Below are positions 3,733 to 56,477 of a stretch of 56,477 nt of DNA, in pieces. The stretch lies in the NCBI GenBank assembly GCA_964016885.1, contig CAXHJY010001425.1, positions 1-56,477 on the forward strand. Reading direction: 5' to 3'. Source of the stretch: Eledone cirrhosa (Eukaryota). Below the pieces are notes generated by a model that was given only the letters and a program-made list of their open reading frames with translations, searched no databases and was not told the origin of the DNA. Within the stretch, counting starts at the first letter, position 1, and every line of letters begins with the position of its first letter. The position numbers and the translations under genes are program-made.

Positions 3733-5171
3733 AAATTTCAGGTTATCAATAATGTAGTGATAATATATCGTTACGTTAGAGATGAACAGCGTACGTGCAG
3801 GTTTGCTCAACGAGTATAAATTATATTCCGGAGAAATGTAGAAAGGATGAATATAAAATGAAAGTGCTTTTGTTAAAAAAGGAATTTATTAGGTATTGAC
3901 ATATGTTTCTGTAACAGACCGAATACCTATGTATCGCTGCTTGCGTAATCATATAATGTTAGCAAGTATTCGATAGCAAATGTATAATCAGTTGTCACTT
4001 CGTCAGAGATTTTGGATAAACTGGATAAAATCAGAAAAATTGAAGTATTTATATTAGTAAAAGAGGAAGGAACAGAGGGGATAGAATATGACAGATGGTA
4101 AATAATTTACTGCTAAACAAGTATATAATGGGTTTTTAATGAGAATACCATGAGTAAATCTAAATAAGAATTTTGGGAGTGCCAATTTTAATCTCTACTT
4201 GACCAACTGGACAGTGGACAGGGCTGGTCATTTGGTGCAGTAGTGTTAATTATAAAGTGTCAATTGGGGAAGGGGGAGATTTCGATTGGTACTAAATAAG
4301 ATCAATGCTAGTAGCCAGCTGGTATATGCATTAGGGAATTGAATCAAGAAATCAGAAATCTCATTTTATCTATAGCAGTTTGTATTAAAAGGTAAATAAT
4401 AGAAGAGTTGATAGAATTAAGACTAATAAAGAATGTTCATATCTATTTTGACAATCAAACGGGGATAAAGACAGGCGTTCAATCCTGGTAGTATTTATAA
4501 TATGAAAATTATAAATACTACCAGGATTGAACGCCTGTCTCTATCCCCGTTTGATTGTCAAAATAGATATGAACATTCTTTATTAGTCTTAATTCTATCA
4601 ACTCTTCTATTATTTACCTTTTATTACAAACTGCTATAGATAAAATGAGATTTCTGATTTCTTGATTCAATTCCCTAATGCATATACCAGCTGGCTACTA
4701 GCATTAATGTTATTTAGTAGCAATCGAAATCCCCCCCTTCCCCAATTGACACTTTATAATTAACACTACTGCACCAAATGACCAGCCCTGTCCACTGTCC
4801 AGTTGGTCAAGTAGAGATTAAAATTGGCACTCCCAAAATTCTTATTTAGATTTACTCATGGTATTCTCATTAAAAACCCATTATATACTTGTTTAGCAGT
4901 AAATTATTTTACCATCTGTCATATTCTATCCCCTCTGTTCCTTCCTCTTTTACTAATATAAATACTTCAATTTTTCTAATTTTATCCAGTTTATCCAAAA
5001 TCTCTGAAGAAGTGACAACTGATTATACATTTGCTATCGAATACTTGCTAACATTATATGATTACGCAAGCAGCGATACATAGGTATTCGGTCTGTTACA
5101 GAAACATATGTCAATGCCCAATAAATTCCTTTTTTAACAAAAGCACTTTCATTTTATATTCATCTTTTCTA
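3732..5171. mobile_element. Large fold-back element (arms 3839-4501 and 4508-5171, 6-nt loop, ~105-bp tail on the left); probable PLE pseudo-LTR
   Basis: ~660-bp arms with few mismatches. CTGA(A/C)GA-A-GTGACA...TGTTAC-A-GAAAC-ATAT-GTC then AATAAA (5004-5125 on +, mirrored on -). Confidence 0.75.
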
Positions 5172-7140
5172 TATATATATATATATGTTATATATATATA
5201 TATACGTTATATATATATATATGCGTTATATATATATATATACGTTATATATATATATATACGTTATATATATATATATACGTTATATATATATATATAC
5301 GTTATATATATATATATACGTTATATATATATATATATACGTTATATATATATATATACGTTATATATATATATATACGTTATATATATATATATATACG
5401 TTATATATATATATATACGTTATATATATATATATATGTTATATATATATATATATATGTTATATATATATATATACATGTTATATATATATATATACGT
5501 TATATATATATATATATGTTATATATATATATATATGTTATATATATATATATACGTTATATATTTATATATATGTTATATATATATATATACGTTATAT
5601 ATATATATATACGTTATATATATATATATATACGTTATATATATATATATATTATATATATATATATATACGTTATATATATATATATACGTTATATATA
5701 TATATATATTATATATATATATATATACGTTATATATATATATATACGTTATATATATATATATATAATATATATATATATATGTTATATATATATAATA
5801 TATATATATATGTTATATATATATATATATATAATATATATATATATATGTTATATATATATATATATAATATATATATATATATGTTATATATATATAA
5901 TATATATATATATGTTATATATATATATATATATAATATATATATATATATATGTTATATATATATATATAATATATATATATATGTTATATATATATAT
6001 ATAATATATATATATATATGTTATATATATATATATAATATATATATATATATATGTTATATATATATATATAATATATATATATATATATGTTATATAT
6101 ATATATATAATATATATATATATATATGTTATATATATATATATAATATATATATATATATATGTTATATATATATATATAATATATATATATATATGTT
6201 ATATATATATATATAATATATATATATATATATGTTATATATATATATATAATATATATATATATATATGTTATATATATATATATAATATATATATATA
6301 TATATGTTATATATATATATATAATATATATATATATATATGTTATATATATATATATAATATATATATATATATGTTATATATATATATATAATATATA
6401 TATATATATGTTATATACATATATATAATATATATATATATATGTTATATATATATATATAATATATATATATATATATGTTATATATATATATAATATA
6501 TATATATATATGTTATATATATATATATAATATATATATATATATATGTTATATATATATATATAATATATATATATATATGTTATATATATATATATAA
6601 TATATATATATATATATGTTATATATATATATATAATATATATATATATATGTTATATATATATATATAATATATATATATATATGTTATATATATATAT
6701 ATAATATATATATATATATGTTATATATATATATATATGTTATATATATATATATAATATATATATATATATGTTATATATATAATATATATATATATAT
6801 AATATATATATATATATATAATATATATATATATAATATATATATATATATATGTTATATATATATATATAATATATATATATATATATGTTATATATAT
6901 ATATATAATATATATATATATATATGTTATATATATATATATAATATATATATATATATGTTATATATATAATATATATATATATATAATATATATATAT
7001 ATATATGTTATATATATATATAATATATATATATATATGTTATATATATAATATATATATATATATAATATATATATATATATATGTTATATATATATAT
7101 ATAATATATATATATATATGTTATATATATAATATATATA

Positions 7141-7812
7141 TATATGTGAATATAGACATAGAATATTCGAAAATATTCTGTATGTTTATAATAAACATTT
7201 TGAAGACCTAATCGCTATAGAATAGAATACGTCACGTATTAAAATTAGATTCTCGATAAAAGCAAGGGAAGTAATCTACGCGTTTCATTCTCGTTAGAAA
7301 TCATCAGGACTACATATCCAGTGCTTTTATCGAGAATGACACAGCTAGAGACTTATAGAATACTTAGCTGTGTACAGGAACTGGTTTGAAAGAGCGGTTG
7401 CCGGTCCGGCAGAAATTAGAAATTGGAATAAATGCTCTGAAATAGCGATATATATGTGAATATAGACATAGAATATTCGAAAATATTCTGTATGTTTATA
7501 ATAAACATTTTGAAGACCTAATCGCTATAGAATAGAATACGTCACGTATTAAAATTAGATTCTCGATAAAAGCAAGGGAAGTAATCTACGCGTTTCATTC
7601 TCGTTAGAAATCATCAGGACTACATATCCAGTGCTTTTATCGAGAATGACACAGCTAGAGACTTATAGAATACTTAGCTGTGTACAGGAACTGGTTTGAA
7701 AGAGCGGTTGCCGGTCCGGCAGAAATTAGAAATTGGAATAAATGCTCTGAAATAGCGATATATATGTGAATATAGACATAGAATATTCGAAAATATTCTG
7801 TATGTTTATAAT
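7141..7812 (-). repeat. ~2.2 tandem copies of the same 310-bp hammerhead-containing unit inside a TA microsatellite
   Basis: TATATGTGAATATAGAC at 7141, 7451 and 7761. Matches the 49-53 kb unit apart from about 3 substitutions. Confidence 0.97.
7271..7313 (-). ncRNA. Minimal type I hammerhead ribozyme (second copy at 7581-7623)
   Basis: Minus strand reads GUAGUC CUGAUGA UUUCUAACGAGAAU GAAACGCGUA GAUUAC; stem II is UUCU/AGAA with an AACG loop. Confidence 0.9.
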
Positions 7813-7884
7813 ATATATGTTATATATATATATATGTTATATATATATATAATATATATATATATAATATATATATATATATGT

Positions 7885-7919
<35 letters not shown>

Positions 7920-8444
7920 TATATATATATGTTATATATATATATAATATATATATATATATATGTTATATATATATATATGTTATATATATATATATAT
8001 GTTATATATATATATATATATAATATATATAATATATATATATATATAATATATATATATATATAATATATATATATATATGTTATATATATATATATAT
8101 AATATATATATATATATAATATATATATATATATAATATATATATATATATGTTATATATATATATATAATATATAGATATATATGTTATATATATATAT
8201 ATATATAATATATATATATATGTTATATATATATATATGTTATATATATATATATATATATAATATATATATATATATATGTTATATATATATATATATA
8301 TAATATATATATATATATATGTTATATATATATATATATATAATATATATATATATAATATATATGTTATATATATATATGTTATATATATATATGTTAT
8401 ATATATATATATATAATATATATATATATAATATATATATATGT

Positions 8445-8477
<33 letters not shown>

Positions 8478-8623
8478 TATATATATGTTATATATATATA
8501 TATAATATATATGTTATATATATATATATAATATATATATATATATGTTATATATATATATATATGTTATATATATATATATAATATATATATATATATG
8601 TTATATATATATATAATATATAT

Positions 8624-8672
<49 letters not shown>

Positions 8673-8685
8673 TATATATATATGT

Positions 8686-8731
<46 letters not shown>

Positions 8732-8944
8732 GTTATATATATATATATAATATATATATATATATGTTATATATATAATATATATATATATATAATATAT
8801 ATATATATATATGTTATATATATATATATAATATATATATATATATGTTATATATATAATATATATATATATATAATATATATATATATATGTTATATAT
8901 ATATATAATATATATATATATATATAATATATATATATATATGT

Positions 8945-8975
<31 letters not shown>

Positions 8976-9043
8976 TATATATATATGTTATATATATATA
9001 TATGTTATATATATATATATATATAATATATATATATATATGT

Positions 9044-9074
<31 letters not shown>

Positions 9075-9103
9075 TATATATATATGTTATATATATATAT
9101 ATG

Positions 9104-9140
<37 letters not shown>

Positions 9141-9197
9141 ATATATATATATATATGTTATATATATATATGTTATATATATATATATATGTTATAT

Positions 9198-9231
<34 letters not shown>

Positions 9232-9800
9232 ACATATATATATATAACATATATATATATATATAACATATATATATATATATGTTATATATATATATAT
9301 GTTATATATATATATATAATAGATATATATATATGTTATATATATATATATATATAATATATATATATATGTTATATATATATATATGTTATATATATAT
9401 ATATATATATAATATATATATATATATATGTTATATATATATATATATATAATATATATATATATATGTTATATATATATATATATATAATATATATATA
9501 TATAATATATATATATATATATGTTATATATATATATGTTATATATATATATATATAATATATATATATATAATATATATATATATATGTTATATATATA
9601 TATGTTATATATATATATATATAATATATATATATATAATATATATATATATATGTTATATATATATATGTTATATATATATATATATAATATATATATA
9701 TATAATATATATATATATAATATATATATATATATGTTATATATATATATGTTATATATATATATATATAATATATATATATATAATATATATATATATG

Positions 9801-9838
<38 letters not shown>

Positions 9839-10011
9839 TATATATATGTTATATATATATATAATATATATATATATATGTTATATATATATATATATAA
9901 TATATATATATATAATATATATATATATAATATATATATATATATGTTATATATATATATGTTATATATATATATATATAATATATATATATATAATATA
10001 TATATATATGT

Positions 10012-10046
<35 letters not shown>

Positions 10047-10205
10047 TATATATATGTTATATATATATATATAATATATATATATATATGTTATATATAT
10101 ATATATATAATATATATATATATAATATATATATATATATGTTATATATATATATGTTATATATATATATATATAATATATATATATATAATATATATAT
10201 ATATG

Positions 10206-10243
<38 letters not shown>

Positions 10244-10509
10244 TATATATATGTTATATATATATATATATAATATATATATATATAATATATATATATA
10301 TATGCTATATATATATATGTTATATATATATATATATATAATATATATATATATAATATATATATATATGTTATATATATATATATAATATATATATATA
10401 TATGTTATATATATATATATATAATATATATATATATATGTTATATATATATATATATATATAATATATATATATATATGTTATATATATATATATATAT
10501 ATATATATG

Positions 10510-10547
<38 letters not shown>

Positions 10548-10711
10548 TATATATATGTTATATATATATATATATATAATATATATATATATATGTTATA
10601 TATATATATATATATAATATATATATATATATGTTATATATATATATATATATAATATATATATATATATGTTATATATATATATATATATATAATATAT
10701 ATATATATATG

Positions 10712-10751
<40 letters not shown>

Positions 10752-10846
10752 TATATATAATATATATATATATAATATATATATATATATGTTATATATA
10801 TATATATAATATATATATATATAATATATATATATATATGTTATAT

Positions 10847-10917
<71 letters not shown>

Positions 10918-11033
10918 ATAATATATATATATATGTTATATATATATATATAATATATATATATATAATATATATATATATATGTTATATATATATATAT
11001 AATATATATATATATAATATATATATATATATG

Positions 11034-11085
<52 letters not shown>

Positions 11086-11210
11086 TATATATAATATATA
11101 TATATATAATATATATATATATAATATATATATATATAATATATATATATATATGTTATATATATATATATAATATATATATATATAATATATATATATA
11201 TATGTTATAT

Positions 11211-11255
<45 letters not shown>

Positions 11256-11271
11256 TATATATATGTTATAT

Positions 11272-11302
<31 letters not shown>

Positions 11303-11437
11303 GTTATATATATATATATATAATATATATATATATATGTTATATATATATATATAATATATATATATATATGTTATATATATATATAATATATATATAT
11401 ATATGTTATATATATATATTATATATATATATATATG

Positions 11438-11470
<33 letters not shown>

Positions 11471-11965
11471 ATATATATATATATATAATATATATATATA
11501 TATGTTATATATATAATATATATATGTTATATATATATATATATATGTTATATATATATATATATATGTTATATATATATATATATATGTATGTTATATA
11601 TATATATATATATGTTATATATATAATATATATATGTTATATATATATATATATGTTATATATATATATATATATATGTTATATATATATATATATATAT
11701 ATATGTTATATATATATATATATATGTTATATATATATATATATATATATATAACATATATATATAACATATATATATATATATATATAACATATATATA
11801 TATATATAACATATATATATATATATAACATATATATATATATATATATATACATATTTTTATGTATACCTACATAAATATATATATATATAACATATAT
11901 ATATAATATATATGTATATACATATATATATATGTGTATGTGCGTGTGTATGCATATATATATTT

Positions 11966-13472: not shown

Positions 13473-14000
13473 CGCGGTTTGTCCCAAAGGTAACGGTGAT
13501 ATTGATTTTCCTATGTATGACATGGTAACGCAGCACATGGTTGATGTATATTGGCGTGTTAGTTATGACATTGGCTGCACGTAAATACGTGGTTCAACAT
13601 GACAGATTTCAGGCGTGTATATAACCTGTTACGTTTGCGATACAAGAAAATATCGAATGGCAATACGTGATCTAATTTTGTGTGAAACTCCAGAAATCTG
13701 CCATCGAAACATTTAATTCTTTAAAACAAGATTATGTAGCTACCACTCTATCTAGAAGTAATGATTTTATGTATACAAAGCTTCCAAAGAGGACCTAGAA
13801 AATGTTGAATATGAACGTATTTCTGATTCTGGAAGGCAAAACTCGTCAACAAATAAACAAAAAGAAGTGATGCGGGTGGTGATGGCGAACAATCACCGAT
13901 TAAACGTTAGGATGATTGCAGGAGAATCACGCTTGGATAAAAATGCGGTTCATAGAATTTTAACAAACCATTTGCACATGCGAAAATGAGTGCAAAAGGC
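13471..14000 (+). mobile_element. Decayed mariner transposon 5' part (TIR-like end and HTH region)
   Basis: Starts TA-CGCGGTTTGTCCC. Degenerate translation FCVKLQKSAIETFNSLKQDY...LSRS...ENVEYER...SGR...RLNVRMIAGESRLDKNAVHRILTNHLHMRK matches a mariner transposase N-terminus; contains stops and frameshifts. Confidence 0.88.
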
Positions 14001-14056
14001 GAATCGGTTATCTGATGATCCTGCGCAGGTGAAACTCCAGAGTATATATATATATA

Positions 14057-19882: not shown

Positions 19883-20270
19883 CTGTGTCTATATATATAC
19901 ATATATATATATAAGTATATGCATATATATATATATCAATGATATTAATAAATGGAAACTATATGTATAAAACCATATTTATTCTATTATATATATTTCA
20001 GGGGTACCAAAACTTTGGTACGTTCTCATCAGATAAAATACAAAATTTGTTTTATAAATATTGACATATCCAGGAACGAGACCTTAACGGTTCAAGTTTT
20101 ACCTGGATATTTTACTCCAGAAATTCTTGTCGAGTGCTTCGAATCAGTTATAAATATATATATTTGTTGAATTAGCAACAAATTAAATATCCATTTGTTT
20201 ATATATATATATATATATATATATGGGGATGCTGTGTAACTATTTATTAAATGTAATGTAAAATTTACGT

Positions 20271-23239: not shown

Positions 23240-23270
<31 letters not shown>

Positions 23271-23275
<5 letters not shown>

Positions 23276-24891
23276 TCACAGGAATCAAAGTTATGTTCAA
23301 ATCATTTATTAGCTTACAATTGTTTCATCCAAACCGAGGCTTGGTGTCTTCGGAGCATTTTTCAATGTTTGTATACATACATGACCTCCTTTCCAACGCT
23401 AGAGACATACAGATACATATGTATATATTGATGTACAGTGGGGTGACATATATTATTTTATTTCTGAATGGCAATTTAAATTCAAAAATTACAATCATAT
23501 TAAAACAGAATCAAAGGAAAATTAAAATTAAAATACATCGGCAGTTAACGTAGATAATGCAAGAGGATAGTTTGTTAGTCAGTTGTAGTAGCTATTGTAT
23601 GCATTAGTTACACGTGGGGCATGCACGTGTGTCTTATTTATATATGATTATTGTGCGGCAGGGTGTTATTTGCAATACAAGCACTTTAAGCGGGTAATCA
23701 AGAGTATAGACGTGGTTCTAATAGGGCCCCTGACAGGTTCTGTGAGTAGACTACATTTACAAAGAACTTTGATATGTAGATCTTACTCTTCGTATGGAAT
23801 ATTTAGTTGTAGCACCCTATGATAGGGAGTAATCATCCTAATATAGATACCTTTAGTACTTCATGATAGAGTAGACTGTAATCAGCTAGTTACCTCCCCT
23901 CACGCATTAACTCCCCTTAATCACACACATACTTCCGGATAATAAAACGTATTAAATTCTCGCAACAGAAACAACCTGCTCTATAAAATTGGATTAAAGA
24001 TCACTGAGCTGCAACACGCTATAATAATTTAACTTAATACATCAAACATCCAATACGGAATCATCGTTAATTATGTGAAAGAAACATAAACTATATATTA
24101 AGTTTCCTGAATTGTGAAAATGGTGGTGTATACAAAAACCATAACATTATTTTGCTTCTCATTTATACTATTTCTCCGCACACAAGCTTCTTTATCATAC
24201 ACAAAAAATACCTTACCACTACAACCTCCATAATACTCTTGATTACCCGCTTAAAGTGCTTGTATTGCATATAACACCTTGCCGCACAATAATCATATAT
24301 AAATAAGACACACGTGCATGCCCCGCGTGTAACTAATGCATACAATAACTACTACAACTGACTAACAAACTATCCTCTTGCATTATCTACGTTAACTGCC
24401 GATGTTGTATTTTAATTTTAATTTTGCTTCGATTCTGTTTTAATATGATTGTAATTTTAGAATTTAAATTGCCATTCAAAAATAAAATAATATCTGTTTT
24501 AATATGATTGTAATTTTAGAATTTAAATTGCCATTCAAAAATAAAATAATATATGTCACCCCACTGTACATCAATATATACATATGTATCTGTATGTCTC
24601 TTGCGTTGGAAAGGAGGTCATGTATGTATACAAACATTGAAAAATGCTCCGAAGACACCAAGCCTCGGTTTGGATGAAACAATTGTAAGCTAATAAATGA
24701 TTTGAACATAACTTTGATTCCTGTGAATTCTATATAACTGCTCTGTAGTACAACTGATGTTTTTACATTGAGCTATTTATCTTACTGGTAATAAGGTAGT
24801 AATAAATTACTGTCTTTCACTGTTTAGGGATTATAATATATATAACTATAAAAAGTGTTAGTATATACATAACCATAAATAGTATCCTTAA

Positions 24892-26168: not shown

Positions 26169-26257
26169 TTTCATCCCGCAGCGTGTCCAATATCACCCTC
26201 CTCGCCAAGCAAGCTTGGTGGGATTGCCGGTTTAGTCGCCGGCGATCCGACCATGGA
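26169..26257 (-). mobile_element. 5' fragment of a related RTE family
   Basis: Homologous to ~35525-35608 (TGTCCAA..TCACCCTCCTC.CCAAG..A.CTTGGTGGG.TTGCC.GTTTAGTCGCC..CGA.CCGACCATGG). Confidence 0.7.
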
Positions 26258-26270
26258 TATACACATATAC

Positions 26271-27900: not shown

Positions 27901-28800
27901 ATATCATTTCTTACTCATGTACTGCATCACCATCCTGCATAACGGCGGTGATTTACTTCTGTCTAACTAAATATTTCATTATCAATATTAAATAATTGAC
28001 AGGCAATTCTATATGAACTTTTTTTGTCGCTGAGGCAGATGTATTGCCAAATATCAGCCAGGATTTCTTTCAGTGTATTTTGCAAACCAGAGACACGTCA
28101 CCTTTCCTTTTGACCTTTACCTGGATAAGGTTTCCAAGAAAATGAGCAATTTTCTTCTTGCACTCATTCCTTACTTTTGTTTTTGCCTGAATCTGCTTGG
28201 TTTCTAACACATACCAAATGATGAGTTATATGTCTCATTGGTGTTTTTGTTATTGTTAAAATACCATTTAAAATGGCGTTAAATTACTTTCTTTTTCTTG
28301 TGCTTTTCGCATTATGGCTTTAAGGATTTGTTTGAAACTCCGTCTCATCATTTAATTGTCGTGTTTTCTGTGCGTTCTCAAGTTTGTTTGTATGTACAAC
28401 ACGTTACAAAGAATATTAAATATTAACATTGGTATCGTTATTTGTAGCTAGCATTTCCATCCCTTAAAGGGAATAATTTTTACTCCGATTATACAATTCA
28501 GATGTAAAAACAGTGCGCAGACACAACTTACTTCTCCCACATGAAATCATAAAACTTCAAGGTTTCACATGTAAGCAGTCACCATTTTTTTTTTGTGGTG
28601 GACATTCTTACAAATGATTCTTCGTTTCATTCTTTTTCCCTAATCTAACGATCGGTGACGTGAAATTCGGACATATGAAATGTTAAATTTTTACACACAT
28701 CTAATATCAATACTCCTTCTTTTCCTTGTTTACACAGAAGTGTTTATATATATAAAATATACATATATGTATCTATGTATATATATATATATATATATAT

Positions 28801-29610
28801 AAATTACACAATAATCAAAGCTATGTTCAAATCATTTTATTGCTGACAATCGTTTCTTCCAAACTATCGTTTAGAGTCATGGGAGCATTAGCAATGTTTG
28901 AACATACAATTAACCTCCTATTTAACTGAACAATCATATAGATACATGGATATTAATGTTGCCAACAACAGTTTCATATTTACAGAGTGGAATGGATGCG
29001 ACATAGATTTCAAGAGAATTGTACAATGATTAAAATTAGAAATTAAAAGTTAAAAGGTAAAAAGGCACAGAGTGGAATGCATAGAAAGTGCACTCTCTAT
29101 ATATATGTACGCTTATATATGTACTGCTAGTGTCCTCGTTTCACGAGTAACTTTCTACCTTAATGCCTCTCTAATTGTTATACTAATCTCTGTCGCATGC
29201 ATTCCACTCTGTGCCTGTTTAACTTTTAACTTTTAATTTTTAATTTTAATCATTGTATAATTCTCTTGAAATCTATGTCGCATCCATTCCAATCTGTAAA
29301 TATGAAACTGTTGTTGGCACCATTAATATCCATGTATCTATATGATTGTTCAGTTAAATAGGAGGTTAATTATATGTACAAACATTGCTAATGCTCCGAT
29401 GATTCGAAAGGATAGTTTGGAAGAAACGATTGTCAGCAATAAAATGATTTGAACATAGCTTTGATTATTGTGTAATTTATATTCCGGCTCTGTAAAACAT
29501 CTCATGTATTTACATTGAGCTATTTTTCTTACTGATAATAAGGTAATAATTAATTAATGACCTTTCCTGTTTATAGTTATATATAGTGTATACATAACTA
29601 TAAATAATAA
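28801..29610. mobile_element. Fold-back element (arms 28801-29082 and 29197-29478, ~130-bp tail on the right), related to the 23.3-24.9 kb element
   Basis: Inverted arms. The terminus ATCAAAG(C/T)TATGTTCAAATCATTT and the tail TTTACATTGAGCTATTT.TCTTACTG.TAATAAGGTA are shared with the 23-25 kb element. Confidence 0.8.
29392..29438 (+). ncRNA. Minimal HHR variant (CCGAUGA core); more decayed mirror copy at ~28841-28887 on -
   Basis: UGCU-CCGAUGA-UUCGAAAGGAUAGUUUGGAA-GAAAC-GAUU-GUC-AGCA, overlapping AAUAAA. Confidence 0.65.
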
Positions 29611-30436: not shown

Positions 30437-30844
30437 TCACGGTGGTTTGAAGTTTGTGAATCTGGTAGTTATTTTATGCCTACAGAAAATTGATCTTTCT
30501 ATTTTGCTGTTAAGCAGCATCTTATCGTACCTTAAAATATGAAGTAGTTCTAAATTACAAAGTCCGCAGTGGAACATTCCGTTGCAGTAGGCCCTTGCTA
30601 CCGATAATTTTGACCAGCTAATCTTATATACTTGGTTTTAGTTTTTAACATGCCAGATTTTCTTGGCGAGCGTCGTAGAGTTCTCCAGTGTACGGTTCTT
30701 CATGGAGTGTCTCTGGACGTACCACCTTTTCTTGAACTCCCCAGCCGTAGAACCTATGTAGTGCCAAGTAGAGTTGCCTGAATTAACAGTACACAGGTAC
30801 ACCATACTCGAATCCAGGCATCTATTTTGTAGTGGGCACTTATC
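30437..30844 (-). pseudogene. GIY-YIG endonuclease domain of the PLE, one in-frame stop
   Basis: DKCPLQNRCLDSSMVYLCTVNSGNSTWHYIGSTAGEFKKRWYVQRHSMKNRTLENSTTLAKKIWHVKN*NQVYKISWSKLSVARAYCNGMFHCGLCNLELLHILRYDKMLLNSKIERSIFCRHK. Contains VY...YIG, the catalytic R, CxLC, LN and CRH motifs. Confidence 0.88.
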
Positions 30845-49371: not shown

Positions 49372-51169
49372 ATATCCAGTGCTTTTATCGAGAATGACAC
49401 AGCTAGAGACTTATAGAATACTTAGCTGTGTACAGGAACTGGTTTGAAAGAGCGGTTGCCGGTCCGGCAGAAATTAGAAATTGGAATAAATGCTCTGAAA
49501 TAGCGATATATATGTGAATATAGACATAGAATATTCGAAAATATTCTGTATGTTTATAATAAACATTTTGAAGACCTAATCGCTATAGAATAGAATACGT
49601 CACGTATTACAATTAGATTCTCGATAAAAGCAAGGGAAGTAATCTACGCGTTTCAATCTTGTTAGAAATCATCAGGACTACATATCCAGTGCTTTTATCG
49701 AGAATGACACAGCTAGAGACTTATAGAATACTTAGCTGTGTACAGGAACTGGTTTGAAAGAGCGGTTGCCGGTCCGGCAGAAATTAGAAATTGGAATAAA
49801 TGCTCTGAAATAGCGATATATATGTGAATATAGACATAGAATATTCGAAAATATTCTGTATGTTTATAATAAACATTTTGAAGACCTAATCGCTATAGAA
49901 TAGAATACGTCACGTATTACAATTAGATTCTCGATAAAAGCAAGGGAAGTAATCTACGCGTTTCAATCTTGTTAGAAATCATCAGGACTACATATCCAGT
50001 GCTTTTATCGAGAATGACACAGCTAGAGACTTATAGAATACTTAGCTGTGTACAGGAACTGGTTTGAAAGAGCGGTTGCCGGTCCGGCAGAAATTAGAAA
50101 TTGGAATAAATGCTCTGAAATAGCGATATATATGTGAATATAGACATAGAATATTCGAAAATATTCTGTATGTTTATAATAAACATTTTGAAGACCTAAT
50201 CGCTATAGAATAGAATACGTCACGTATTACAATTAGATTCTCGATAAAAGCAAGGGAAGTAATCTACGCGTTTCAATCTTGTTAGAAATCATCAGGACTA
50301 CATATCCAGTGCTTTTATCGAGAATGACACAGCTAGAGACTTATAGAATACATAGCTGTGTACAGGAACTGGTTTGAAAGAGCGGTTGCCGGTCCGGCAG
50401 AAATTAGAAATTGGAATAAATGCTCTGAAATAGCGATATATATGTGAATATAGACATAGAATATTCGAAAATATTCTGTATGTTTATAATAAACATTTGA
50501 AGACCTAATCGCTATAGAATAGAATACGTCACGTATTACAATTAGATTCTCGATAAAAGCAAGGGACGTAATCTACGCGTTTCAATCTTGTTAGAAATCA
50601 TCAGGACTACATATCCAGTGCTTTTATCGAGAATGACACAGCTAGAGACTTATAGAATACTTAGCTGTGTACAGGAACTGGTTGAAAGAGCGGTTGCCGG
50701 TCCGGCAGAAATTAGAAATTGGAATAAATGCTCTGAAATAGCGATATATATGTGAATATAGACATAGAATATTCGAAAATATTCTGTATGTTTATAATAA
50801 ACATTTTGAAGACCTAATCGCTATAGAATAGAATACGTCACGTATTACAATTAGATTCTCGATAAAAGCAAGGGAAGTAATCTACGCGTTTCAATCTTGT
50901 TAGAAATCATCAGGACTACATATCCAGTGCTTTTATCGAGACGTATTCTATTCTATAGCGATTAGGTCTTCAAAATGTTTATTATAAACATACAGAATAT
51001 TTTCGAATATTCTATGTCTATATTCACATATATATCGCTATTTCAGAGCATTTATTCCAATTTCTAATTTCTGCCGGACCGGCAACCGCTCTTTCAAACC
51101 AGTTCCTGTACACAGCTAAGTATTCTATAAGTCTCTAGCTGTGTCATTCTCGATAAAAGCACTGGATAT

Positions 51170-51212
51170 GTAGTCCTGATGATTTCTAACAAGATTGAAA
51201 CGCGTAGATTAC
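51170..51212 (+). ncRNA. Minimal type I hammerhead ribozyme (representative; further + copies start at ~51480, 51790, 52099, 52409, 52719, 53028)
   Basis: GUAGUC (stem I 5') - CUGAUGA - UUUCUAACAAGAUU (stem II) - GAA - ACGCGU (palindromic stem III) - A / GAUUAC (stem I 3'). Predicted cleavage after GUA at 51206. Stem I is extended by ATTCTCGATAAAAGCA (51146-51161) pairing with TGCTTTTATCGAGAAT (51219-51234). Confidence 0.9.
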
Positions 51213-53234
51213 TTCCCTTGCTTTTATCGAGAATCTAATTGTAATACGTGACGTATTCTATTCTATAGCGATTAGGTCTTCAAAATGTTTATTATAAACA
51301 TACAGAATATTTTCGAATATTCTATGTCTATATTCACATATATATCGCTATTTCAGAGCATTTATTCCAATTTCTAATTTCTGCCGGACCGGCAACCGCT
51401 CTTTCAAACCAGTTCCTGTACACAGCTAAGTATTCTATAAGTCTCTAGCTGTGTCATTCTCGATAAAAGCACTGGATATGTAGTCCTGATGATTTCTAAC
51501 AAGATTGAAACGCGTAGATTACTTCCCTTGCTTTTATCGAGAATCTAATTGTAATACGTGACGTATTCTATTCTATAGCGATTAGGTCTTCAAAATGTTT
51601 ATTATAAACATACAGAATATTTTCGAATATTCTATGTCTATATTCACATATATATCGCTATTTCAGAGCATTTATTCCAATTTCTAATTTCTGCCGGACC
51701 GGCAACCGCTCTTTCAAACCAGTTCCTGTACACAGCTAAGTATTCTATAAGTCTCTAGCTGTGTCATTCTCGATAAAAGCACTGGATATGTAGTCCTGAT
51801 GATTTCTAACAAGATTGAAACGCGTAGATTACTTCCCTTGCTTTTATCGAGAATCTAATTGTAATACGTGACGTATTCTATTCTATAGCGATTAGGTCTT
51901 CAAAATGTTTATTATAAACATACAGAATATTTTCGAATATTCTATGTCTATATTCACATATATATCGCTATTTCAGAGCATTTATTCCAATTTCTAATTT
52001 CTGCCGGACCGGCAACCGCTCTTTCAAACCAGTTCCTGTACACAGCTAAGTATTCTATAAGTCTCTAGCTGTGTCATTCTCGATAAAGCACTGGATATGT
52101 AGTCCTGATGATTTCTAACAAGATTGAAACGCGTAGATTACTTCCCTTGCTTTTATCGAGAATCTAATTGTAATACGTGACGTATTCTATTCTATAGCGA
52201 TTAGGTCTTCAAAATGTTTATTATAAACATACAGAATATTTTCGAATATTCTATGTCTATATTCACATATATATCGCTATTTCAGAGCATTTATTCCAAT
52301 TTCTAATTTCTGCCGGACCGGCAACCGCTCTTTCAAACCAGTTCCTGTACACAGCTAAGTATTCTATAAGTCTCTAGCTGTGTCATTCTCGATAAAAGCA
52401 CTGGATATGTAGTCCTGATGATTTCTAACAAGATTGAAACGCGTAGATTACTTCCCTTGCTTTTATCGAGAATCTAATTGTAATACGTGACGTATTATAT
52501 TCTATAGCGATTAGGTCTTCAAAATGTTTATTATAAACATACAGAATATTTTCGAATATTCTATGTCTATATTCACATATATATCGCTATTTCAGAGCAT
52601 TTATTCCAATTTCTAATTTCTGCCGGACCGGCAACCGCTCTTTCAAACCAGTTCCTGTACACAGCTAAGTATTCTATAAGTCTCTAGCTGTGTCATTCTC
52701 GATAAAAGCACTGGATATGTAGTCCTGATGATTTCTAACAAGATTGAAACGCGGTAGATTACTTCCCTTGCTTTTATCGAGAATCTAATTGTAATACGTG
52801 ACGTATTCTATTCTATAGCGATTAGGTCTTCAAAATGTTTATTATAAACATACAGAATATTTTCGAATATTCTATGTCTATATTCACATATATATCGCTA
52901 TTTCAGAGCATTTATTCCAATTTCTAATTCTGCGGACCGGCAACCGCTCTTTCAAACCAGTTCCTGTACACAGCTAAGTATTCTATAAGTCTCTAGCTGT
53001 GTCATTCTCGATAAAAGCACTGGATATGTAGTCCTGATGATTTCTAACAAGATTGAAACGCGTAGATTACTTCCTTGCTTTTATCGAGAATCTAATTGTA
53101 ATACGTGACGTATTCTATTCTATAGCGATTAGGTCTTCAAAATGTTTATTATAAACATACAGAATATTTTCGAATATTCTATGTCTATATTCACATATAT
53201 ATCGCTATTTCAGAGCATTTATTCCAATTTCTAA

Positions 53235-56477
<3,243 letters not shown>

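Follow-up and report, generated by a model that had tools for sequence, protein, structure and literature searches.

The segment at 7138..7813 (minus strand) of the window, by which we mean the whole stretch of 56,477 nucleotides of Eledone cirrhosa DNA analysed here, is a dispersed copy of a non-LTR retrozyme. Together with a large palindromic array at 49163-53235 it represents an added family in this known class, and it occupies two loci within 56 kb. The copy probably arrived through an RNA intermediate, whether the template was a circle or a linear multimer. More specifically, and tentatively, we propose that it was inserted into (TA)n by a Penelope-like reverse transcriptase which copied a predicted circular monomer slightly more than two times.

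Aligned to the unit, the copy measures 670-676 bp, i.e. 2.16-2.18 head-to-tail units of 310 bp with 34% GC, running from u84 to u139 in RNA sense (numbering of the unit begins, at u1, with the base that follows the GUA cleavage triplet, and in this copy the minus strand has RNA sense). The preliminary description had placed a roughly 2.2-mer of the array's unit at 7141..7812, in a different register and 42 kb away from the array, and all of this is confirmed. The start-to-start distance is 42,022 bp, with a gap of 41,350 bp, and both outer ends of the array lie at u172. Identity between copy and array is 99.1%, and the two repeats within the copy are 100% identical over 360 bp. Exactly three differences per unit separate copy from array, namely u35 (7242 and 7552), u295 in loop II (7292 and 7602) and u299 in stem II (7288 and 7598), each shared by the two repeats and lacking from every array unit. 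Two of the three fall within the 14-nt stem-loop II (p about 0.006), which reads UUCU-AACG-AGAA in the copy and UCU-AACA-AGA in the array, just as had been described along with an estimate of about three differences. It had also been remarked that none of them touches the core. This is true of the three sites but uninformative, since absence of changes from the 15-nt core has p about 0.86, and we dropped the unchanged core as a sign of selection. The u35 variant is private to the copy, being missing from the array and from two public sequencing runs, X1 and X10, described below; the other two fixed variants are independently present in X1. The open reading frame listing contains no stop-to-stop frame of 80 amino acids within 7138-7813, and no reverse transcriptase or endonuclease was found in the unit.

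Every unit carries the motif of a type I hammerhead ribozyme, consisting of CUGAUGA, a short stem II, GAAAC-GC-GUA and a 6-bp stem I that continues, beyond an internal loop, into a 15-16-bp extension. In the copy, one hammerhead with this extended stem I occupies 7559..7648 (minus strand; core CUGAUGA from 7617, predicted cut between 7587 and 7586) and the other 7249..7338 (minus strand; core from 7307, predicted cut between 7277 and 7276). Cores are found in 2/2 hammerheads of the copy and 13/13 of the array, one of the latter with an extra base in stem III, and all three stems (I to III) form. The palindrome ACGCGU makes up stem III and pairs over 6 bp between two copies in the unconstrained fold. 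None of 3000 simulated units displayed a hammerhead with 6-bp stem I and palindromic stem III by chance. Helix I has 6 bp plus the extension, helix II has 3-4 bp (5 in run X10), and a U-U apposition sits at the base of stem II in the ribozymes of the window. A relaxed hammerhead scan found the ribozyme in one polarity only. No Rfam family reached its gathering score in the window, and for the copy, searched up to E 5, there were four chance matches and no ribozyme.

The unconstrained minimum-energy fold of 7250-7650 (minus strand) is a double hammerhead with both cores open and stems II formed, and the cofold agrees; its z of -6.3 is inflated, as shuffling destroys the repeat. According to these models, two neighbouring ribozymes would fold as a double hammerhead and release exactly one unit, 7586-7277. 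The predicted 310-nt monomer freed by both cuts (7277..7586, minus strand, 34% GC) gives a branched circular fold with 60% of bases paired and z of -4.2. Dimer-dependent type I hammerheads are recognized by a 1-2-bp stem III whose palindromic loop pairs between copies, and the predicted structure shows this feature. Both ribozymes of the copy are complete, with cores at 7617 and 7307 and full stem I, and correspond to the at least two consecutive complete ribozymes that define an "active" copy for Li et al. (10.64898/2026.07.22.740005; here and below, published work is cited from the available portions of the sources). The copy is thereby predicted to retain the minimum for restarting the cycle.

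The copy forms an island within a 10-kb (TA)n satellite. The host satellite with A and TGT variants, delimited at 5174..11923, has equal polarity left and right of the copy. At the left junction (7138..7147, plus strand), corresponding to the RNA 3' end and putative priming end, unit and satellite share a 10-nt microhomology at u139. At the right junction (7807..7813, plus strand), corresponding to the RNA 5' end, 7 nt are shared with the A variant of the satellite at u84. A 10-nt match is reached at 2 of the 310 unit positions and a 7-nt match at 8, for a joint probability of about 1.7e-4, calculated post hoc. Both ends of the copy thus lie on the two edges of one TA-like segment of 56 nt, u84-139 (minus strand; 7758..7813, also 7138-7193 and 7448-7503), in line with the earlier statement that both junctions fall in TA-like bases. 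Among the 310 windows of 56 nt in the unit this segment ranks first in TA content; it is about 75% like the satellites and constitutes the terminal redundancy of the copy, its extra 0.18 unit. The junctions fit priming by pairing followed by microhomology joining, and they fit repair synthesis from a DNA donor equally. At the array ends (u172) the homology to the satellite is limited to 2-3 nt, so TA pairing is no general rule. Target-site duplications of retrozymes, where they occur, exceed 4 bp. A 14-20-bp satellite motif, A(TA)nTGT, flanks the copy on both sides, but the chance of such an agreement is about 0.67; a target-site duplication is therefore unprovable and the claim was dropped.

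The array at 49163-53235 comprises 13 units in a head-to-head palindrome, with RNA 3' ends pointing outward. Its left arm (49163..50941, minus strand) has 5.75 units and six hammerheads, with the RNA 3' end u172 toward the satellite; its right, inverted arm (50940..53235, plus strand) has 7.4 units and seven hammerheads, including the one with the extra stem III base, and its RNA 3' end is also u172. The inversion joins u252 to u46 (50928..50945, turn at 50941) at the 3' end of a 14-bp hairpin derived from the extended stem I of the ribozyme. At the turn the antisense strand can pair with itself over these 14 bp, and pairing of at least 13 bp is available at 4 of the 310 unit positions. The right arm exceeds a pure fold-back copy (1677 nt) by 617 nt, about two units. 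On the right flank (53236..53540) the satellite polarity is reversed: the first 34 nt are an exact mirror of the left flank, about 100 nt are reversed, and mixed sequence follows. The 34-nt mirror is weak evidence by itself, for an equally good match is given by 7 of the 1502 left-satellite positions, all of them within 270 nt of the array. Within the array, matches amount to 99%, 7 of 10 differences are single-base indels, and the three later substitutions are each private to one unit. The inversion on stem I and the mirrored flank suggest snap-back priming. We infer a single insertion for the array, after which snap-back synthesis ran through the junction; this would explain its identical outer ends without two independent events, and the window would thus record two events, not three.

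The route that we propose, with a circular template, may be envisaged as follows. Each unit has an observed motif of a type I hammerhead with palindromic stem III. Neighbouring ribozymes are predicted to co-fold and excise a 310-nt monomer, to be closed into a circle by a host ligase. At a nick or break in the satellite, the free end would then pair over 10 nt with the TA-like segment of the RNA, priming cDNA at u139. The enzyme would circle 2.18 times, and the cDNA end would be joined to the other satellite end through the 7-nt microhomology at u84. The array would be a second event, primed at u172, in which the cDNA end folded back upon stem I and synthesis then ran through the junction into the target, yielding the palindrome.

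Several observations speak for this route. All three variants of the copy occur in both repeats and u35 is private, whereas array substitutions are private to single units; this is what is expected of a monomer template. The longer microhomology is located at the RNA 3' end, which counts for priming on RNA. The outward RNA 3' ends of the array with a 5' inversion inside reproduce the arrangement of Penelope-like elements (PMC8557442), and the same outward-3' polarity recurs in the inverted repeats 23266-24736 and 28797-29482, both points counting for an RNA reading. Location of the inversion where the antisense strand self-primes by 14 bp counts for snap-back. On the other side, both ends of the copy lie on the edges of the one satellite-like segment, which DNA repair explains equally. 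The lack of a provable target duplication, the lack of a Penelope match in the unit among the matches listed, and the presence of other inserts in the satellites count against an RNA reading as well, as do the U-U at the base of stem II and the inactivity of 8/9 Xenopus dimers (10.64898/2026.07.22.740005). The route is further opposed by the behaviour of a purified enzyme which starts at RNA sites non-homologous to the target and accepts unprocessed RNA without need of cleavage (PMC11167929). The preliminary description had proposed that a circular RNA was copied by rolling reverse transcription from (TA)n primers. Published work advances this same model, with which the sequence is compatible, but multimeric RNA, a tandem DNA donor or repair of (TA)n fit too, and two insertions cannot prove target-primed circle copying. 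We infer cleavage, circle, helper, priming and snap-back from sequence.

Among the alternatives, a DNA-level templated insertion survives best, and we regard it as unlikely although a serious contender. Long (TA)n tracts are fragile, and a broken one might have been repaired by invasion of a tandem array or DNA circle at its TA-like segment, with 670 bp copied and the ends rejoined by microhomology, the ribozyme being a mere passenger. Microhomologies at both junctions, bordering the 56-nt segment with the strongest TA likeness, are what such repair would leave; equal satellite polarity on both sides, the unprovable target duplication and the many unrelated inserts housed by the satellites agree with it. 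It requires, however, a donor array homogenised for the private u35 variant; no such array was seen in the window or in runs X1 and X10. It also leaves unexplained the u172 ends of the array, with their 2-3 nt of homology, and the outward-3' polarity common to three palindromes.

A linear template is, in our estimate, rather improbable. Here the same Penelope-like enzyme would start internally on an uncleaved multimer transcribed from another array, with 5' truncation and no circle. A Penelope-like enzyme did take unprocessed RNA in vitro and began internally, cleavage being unneeded (PMC11167929). Moreover, dimer-dependent ribozymes are slow (PMC6765202, PMC4209133) and 8/9 tested dimers were inactive (10.64898/2026.07.22.740005). 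Identical repeats with a private variant nevertheless suit a monomer better, and circles are abundant in the three retrozymes studied in PMC7229834.

An assembly or read artefact, such as a chimeric or fold-back read that made the small copy or the palindromic array, is very improbable. The single-base indels that prevail among array differences do resemble long-read consensus errors. The copy, however, has three fixed variants, two of them seen independently in X1; the arms of the array are unequal in length, their differences are not mirrored, and the turn falls on a ribozyme stem. Other palindromes of the window have arms diverged by 2-5%, so palindromes are real here. Static satellite DNA duplicated inside a larger segment can practically be dismissed: the large array is homogeneous, as a static satellite would be, but registers, variants and flanking satellites (A/TGT-type at the copy, CA-type at the array) differ and there is no common unique flank, so that segmental duplication with shared unique flanks, named beforehand as the case against mobility, is excluded and the unit is better described, as had been suggested, as mobile. 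Single-crossover integration of a DNA circle was rejected too, for it would yield a whole number of units and not a 56-nt redundancy.

A candidate class of helper is present in the genome, as the window contains a broken Penelope-like reading frame outside the repeat, with the end of a reverse transcriptase followed by a GIY-YIG-type endonuclease (30440..31262, minus strand; tblastn E about 1e-12 twice). This remnant adjoins a 17-kb satellite at 31700, and a hairpin lies at about 31520-31600. When the unit was compared with the Penelope pieces of the window, the best of the matches listed had E 0.001 or worse and all were TA-like. The inverted repeats 23266-24736 and 28797-29482 are related to each other, have arms 96-98% alike, abut (TA)n and share a one-sided extension; they are likely Penelope pLTR pairs. 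Hammerhead-like motifs occur in them at 24676 (plus), 23326 (minus) and 29396 (plus), with the same outward-3' polarity as in the array. A second, unrelated single hammerhead motif is found at 19980-20045 (minus strand), with core at 20032, an 8-bp stem I, a long stem II and a palindromic AU stem III. Further palindromes at 1517-1835, 3836-5174 and 46873-47397 lie in or beside (TA)n satellites, show arm divergence of 2-5%, and have a one-sided extension of one arm; at the palindrome centred at 4504, the polarity of the satellite is opposite on the two sides.

The satellites of the window carry the 3' end of a LINE and other unrelated inserts, and may be general sinks for inserts. The LINE end with its reverse transcriptase (41834-42622, minus strand) lies within CA-type satellite and is about 50% identical to many reverse transcriptase proteins. 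For the fragment 41920-42621, the highest identity among the matches listed was to a protein of Argonauta hians (66% identity, 59% of the query covered). Pfam recognized no family in the Penelope pieces, the LINE pieces or P0121, and one protein search was without match. A direct repeat of about 600 bp, 95% alike (35031-35644 and 37512-38128), encloses (CATA)-type satellite, with a related piece at about 26180-26260. One SINE in the window presumably resembles an octopus SINE, and 13480-14045 we take, from its motif, to be a mariner-like transposase fragment. A hammerhead-like string at 14012, inside this fragment and without stem I, was judged a chance occurrence.

Much of the unit is also present in other data sets. 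In 20 of 24 listed sequencing runs, covering 18 coded organism labels and 17 studies, 59-93% of the unit's 31-letter words were found (one run may be the window's own source). The listed holders include no RNA run, so these figures say nothing on expression. Four of the 24 runs, X1, X10, X23 and X24, were analysed further. Runs X1 and X10 each gave one closed head-to-tail contig, 1 and 3 letters away from the copy and without loose ends, hence without flanks or further junctions, although tandem arrays and circles alike would yield a closed contig. Down to 85% identity, neither X1 nor X10 contained a decayed relative. X1 carries the stem II of the small copy, which shows that this variant is real, and in X10 stem II is longer by one pair at its base. 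Among the four haplotypes, 3 of 4 variable sites belong to stem-loop II (p about 4e-4), and stem II has 3, 4 or 5 pairs. Presence of the unit was discordant between runs of one sample or study. X23 and X24, Hi-C runs with the label and study of the holder X2, had no unit reads in 1,938 Mb each; this counts as no test. About 35 reads would be anticipated if a 3-Gb genome held 15 unit copies, a conditional figure only. X21 and X22, from the same sample as the holder X13, had no unit words, which is no proof of absence. Pattern scans gave no match in metagenome contigs and viral contigs.

It is conceivable, but we consider it doubtful, that the 310-nt RNA spreads between animal species as a free circle and that both loci are its fresh footprints, with a Penelope-like enzyme priming the second strand on stem I. 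Near-identity across labels is explained as well by closely related hosts, by prey, or by a high-copy repeat that cross-contaminated the libraries. Should the copies under many labels prove to be genuine residents, they would be a rare instance of passage between species by a ribozyme RNA; if not, the retrozymes gain one more family.

Movement of animal retrozymes is still a proposal, with helper enzyme and use of circles unproven in the field. It can be tested well on a young family like this one, whose copies are nearly identical, whose junctions are clean, and which offers two registers and an inversion on the ribozyme stem; natural stem II variants with 3, 4 and 5 pairs offer a ready cleavage series. 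This is probably the first retrozyme family to be noted in an octopod. No cephalopod retrozyme and no case of animal retrozyme transfer were found in the literature, in the portions of openly available sources that were covered; nor did these portions contain, for retrozymes, a palindrome turning on ribozyme stem I or junctions in a TA-like segment. The available part of an octopus repeat annotation (PMC13282606) leaves ribozymes unmentioned. What is added to the known class is the anatomy of the junctions, the fold-back on stem I and the near-identity across labels.

Comparison with known systems places the unit as follows. It shares with viroid-like circular RNAs bearing ribozymes (PMC7761336) a stable circular fold of a 310-nt unit (z -4.2), but those RNAs are rod-like and usually have ribozymes in both polarities, whereas here the ribozyme has one polarity, the 60%-paired fold is branched and tandem copies are genomic. 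With no other ribozyme in Rfam besides, assignment to viroid-like RNAs was rejected. The Neptune and Naiad types of Penelope-like elements (PMC8557442, PMC11167929) offer further likenesses, including partial tandems, an inverted 5'-truncated copy, (TA)n bias, internal start of reverse transcription and palindromic stem III. Inverted 5' copies and (TA)n bias were reported for these elements by Craig et al. 2021 (PMC8557442), and Frangieh et al. 2024 (PMC11167929) showed, with a purified Penelope-like enzyme, cleavage of AT-rich DNA and initiation within the RNA. Unlike them, the unit has no reverse transcriptase or endonuclease and, among the matches listed, no detected similarity to the Penelope pieces of the window. 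An autonomous Penelope-like element is thus rejected, as the unit lacks a reading frame joining telomerase-like reverse transcriptase and GIY-YIG. So is the minimal Penelope hammerhead, whose helices do not match in size: its helix I and helix II have 4-5 and 7-8 bp, and the 6 bp and 3-4 bp of our unit are canonical for metazoans (PMC4209133).

Satellite hammerheads of newt and axolotl (PMC7229834, PMC4209133), with units of 330-350 nt, resemble ours in an unstable 2-bp stem III with a palindromic loop acting as a dimer; they differ in host, ours being an invertebrate, and in unrelated sequence context, and cleavage here is predicted only. The non-LTR retrozymes were defined in PMC7229834, where target-primed copying of circles into tandem cDNA was proposed, and more-than-unit copying from a circle had been proposed earlier (PMC4209133). 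Li, Clavereau and Pollet 2026 (10.64898/2026.07.22.740005) tied retrozymes to Penelope pLTRs, with Penelope-like elements as helpers, and found that 1/9 predicted Xenopus retrozyme dimers cleaved in vitro and 8/9 did not. The U-U at the base of stem II sets the units of the window apart from described retrozymes. With a unit size inside 150-450 bp, GC below 45-50%, no protein frame and a hammerhead in every unit, they agree with the class, and the likeness to animal non-LTR retrozymes (PMC7229834; 10.64898/2026.07.22.740005) extends to a low-GC tandem unit of about 300 bp, type I hammerheads, occurrence as dimers to multimers and absence of open reading frames.
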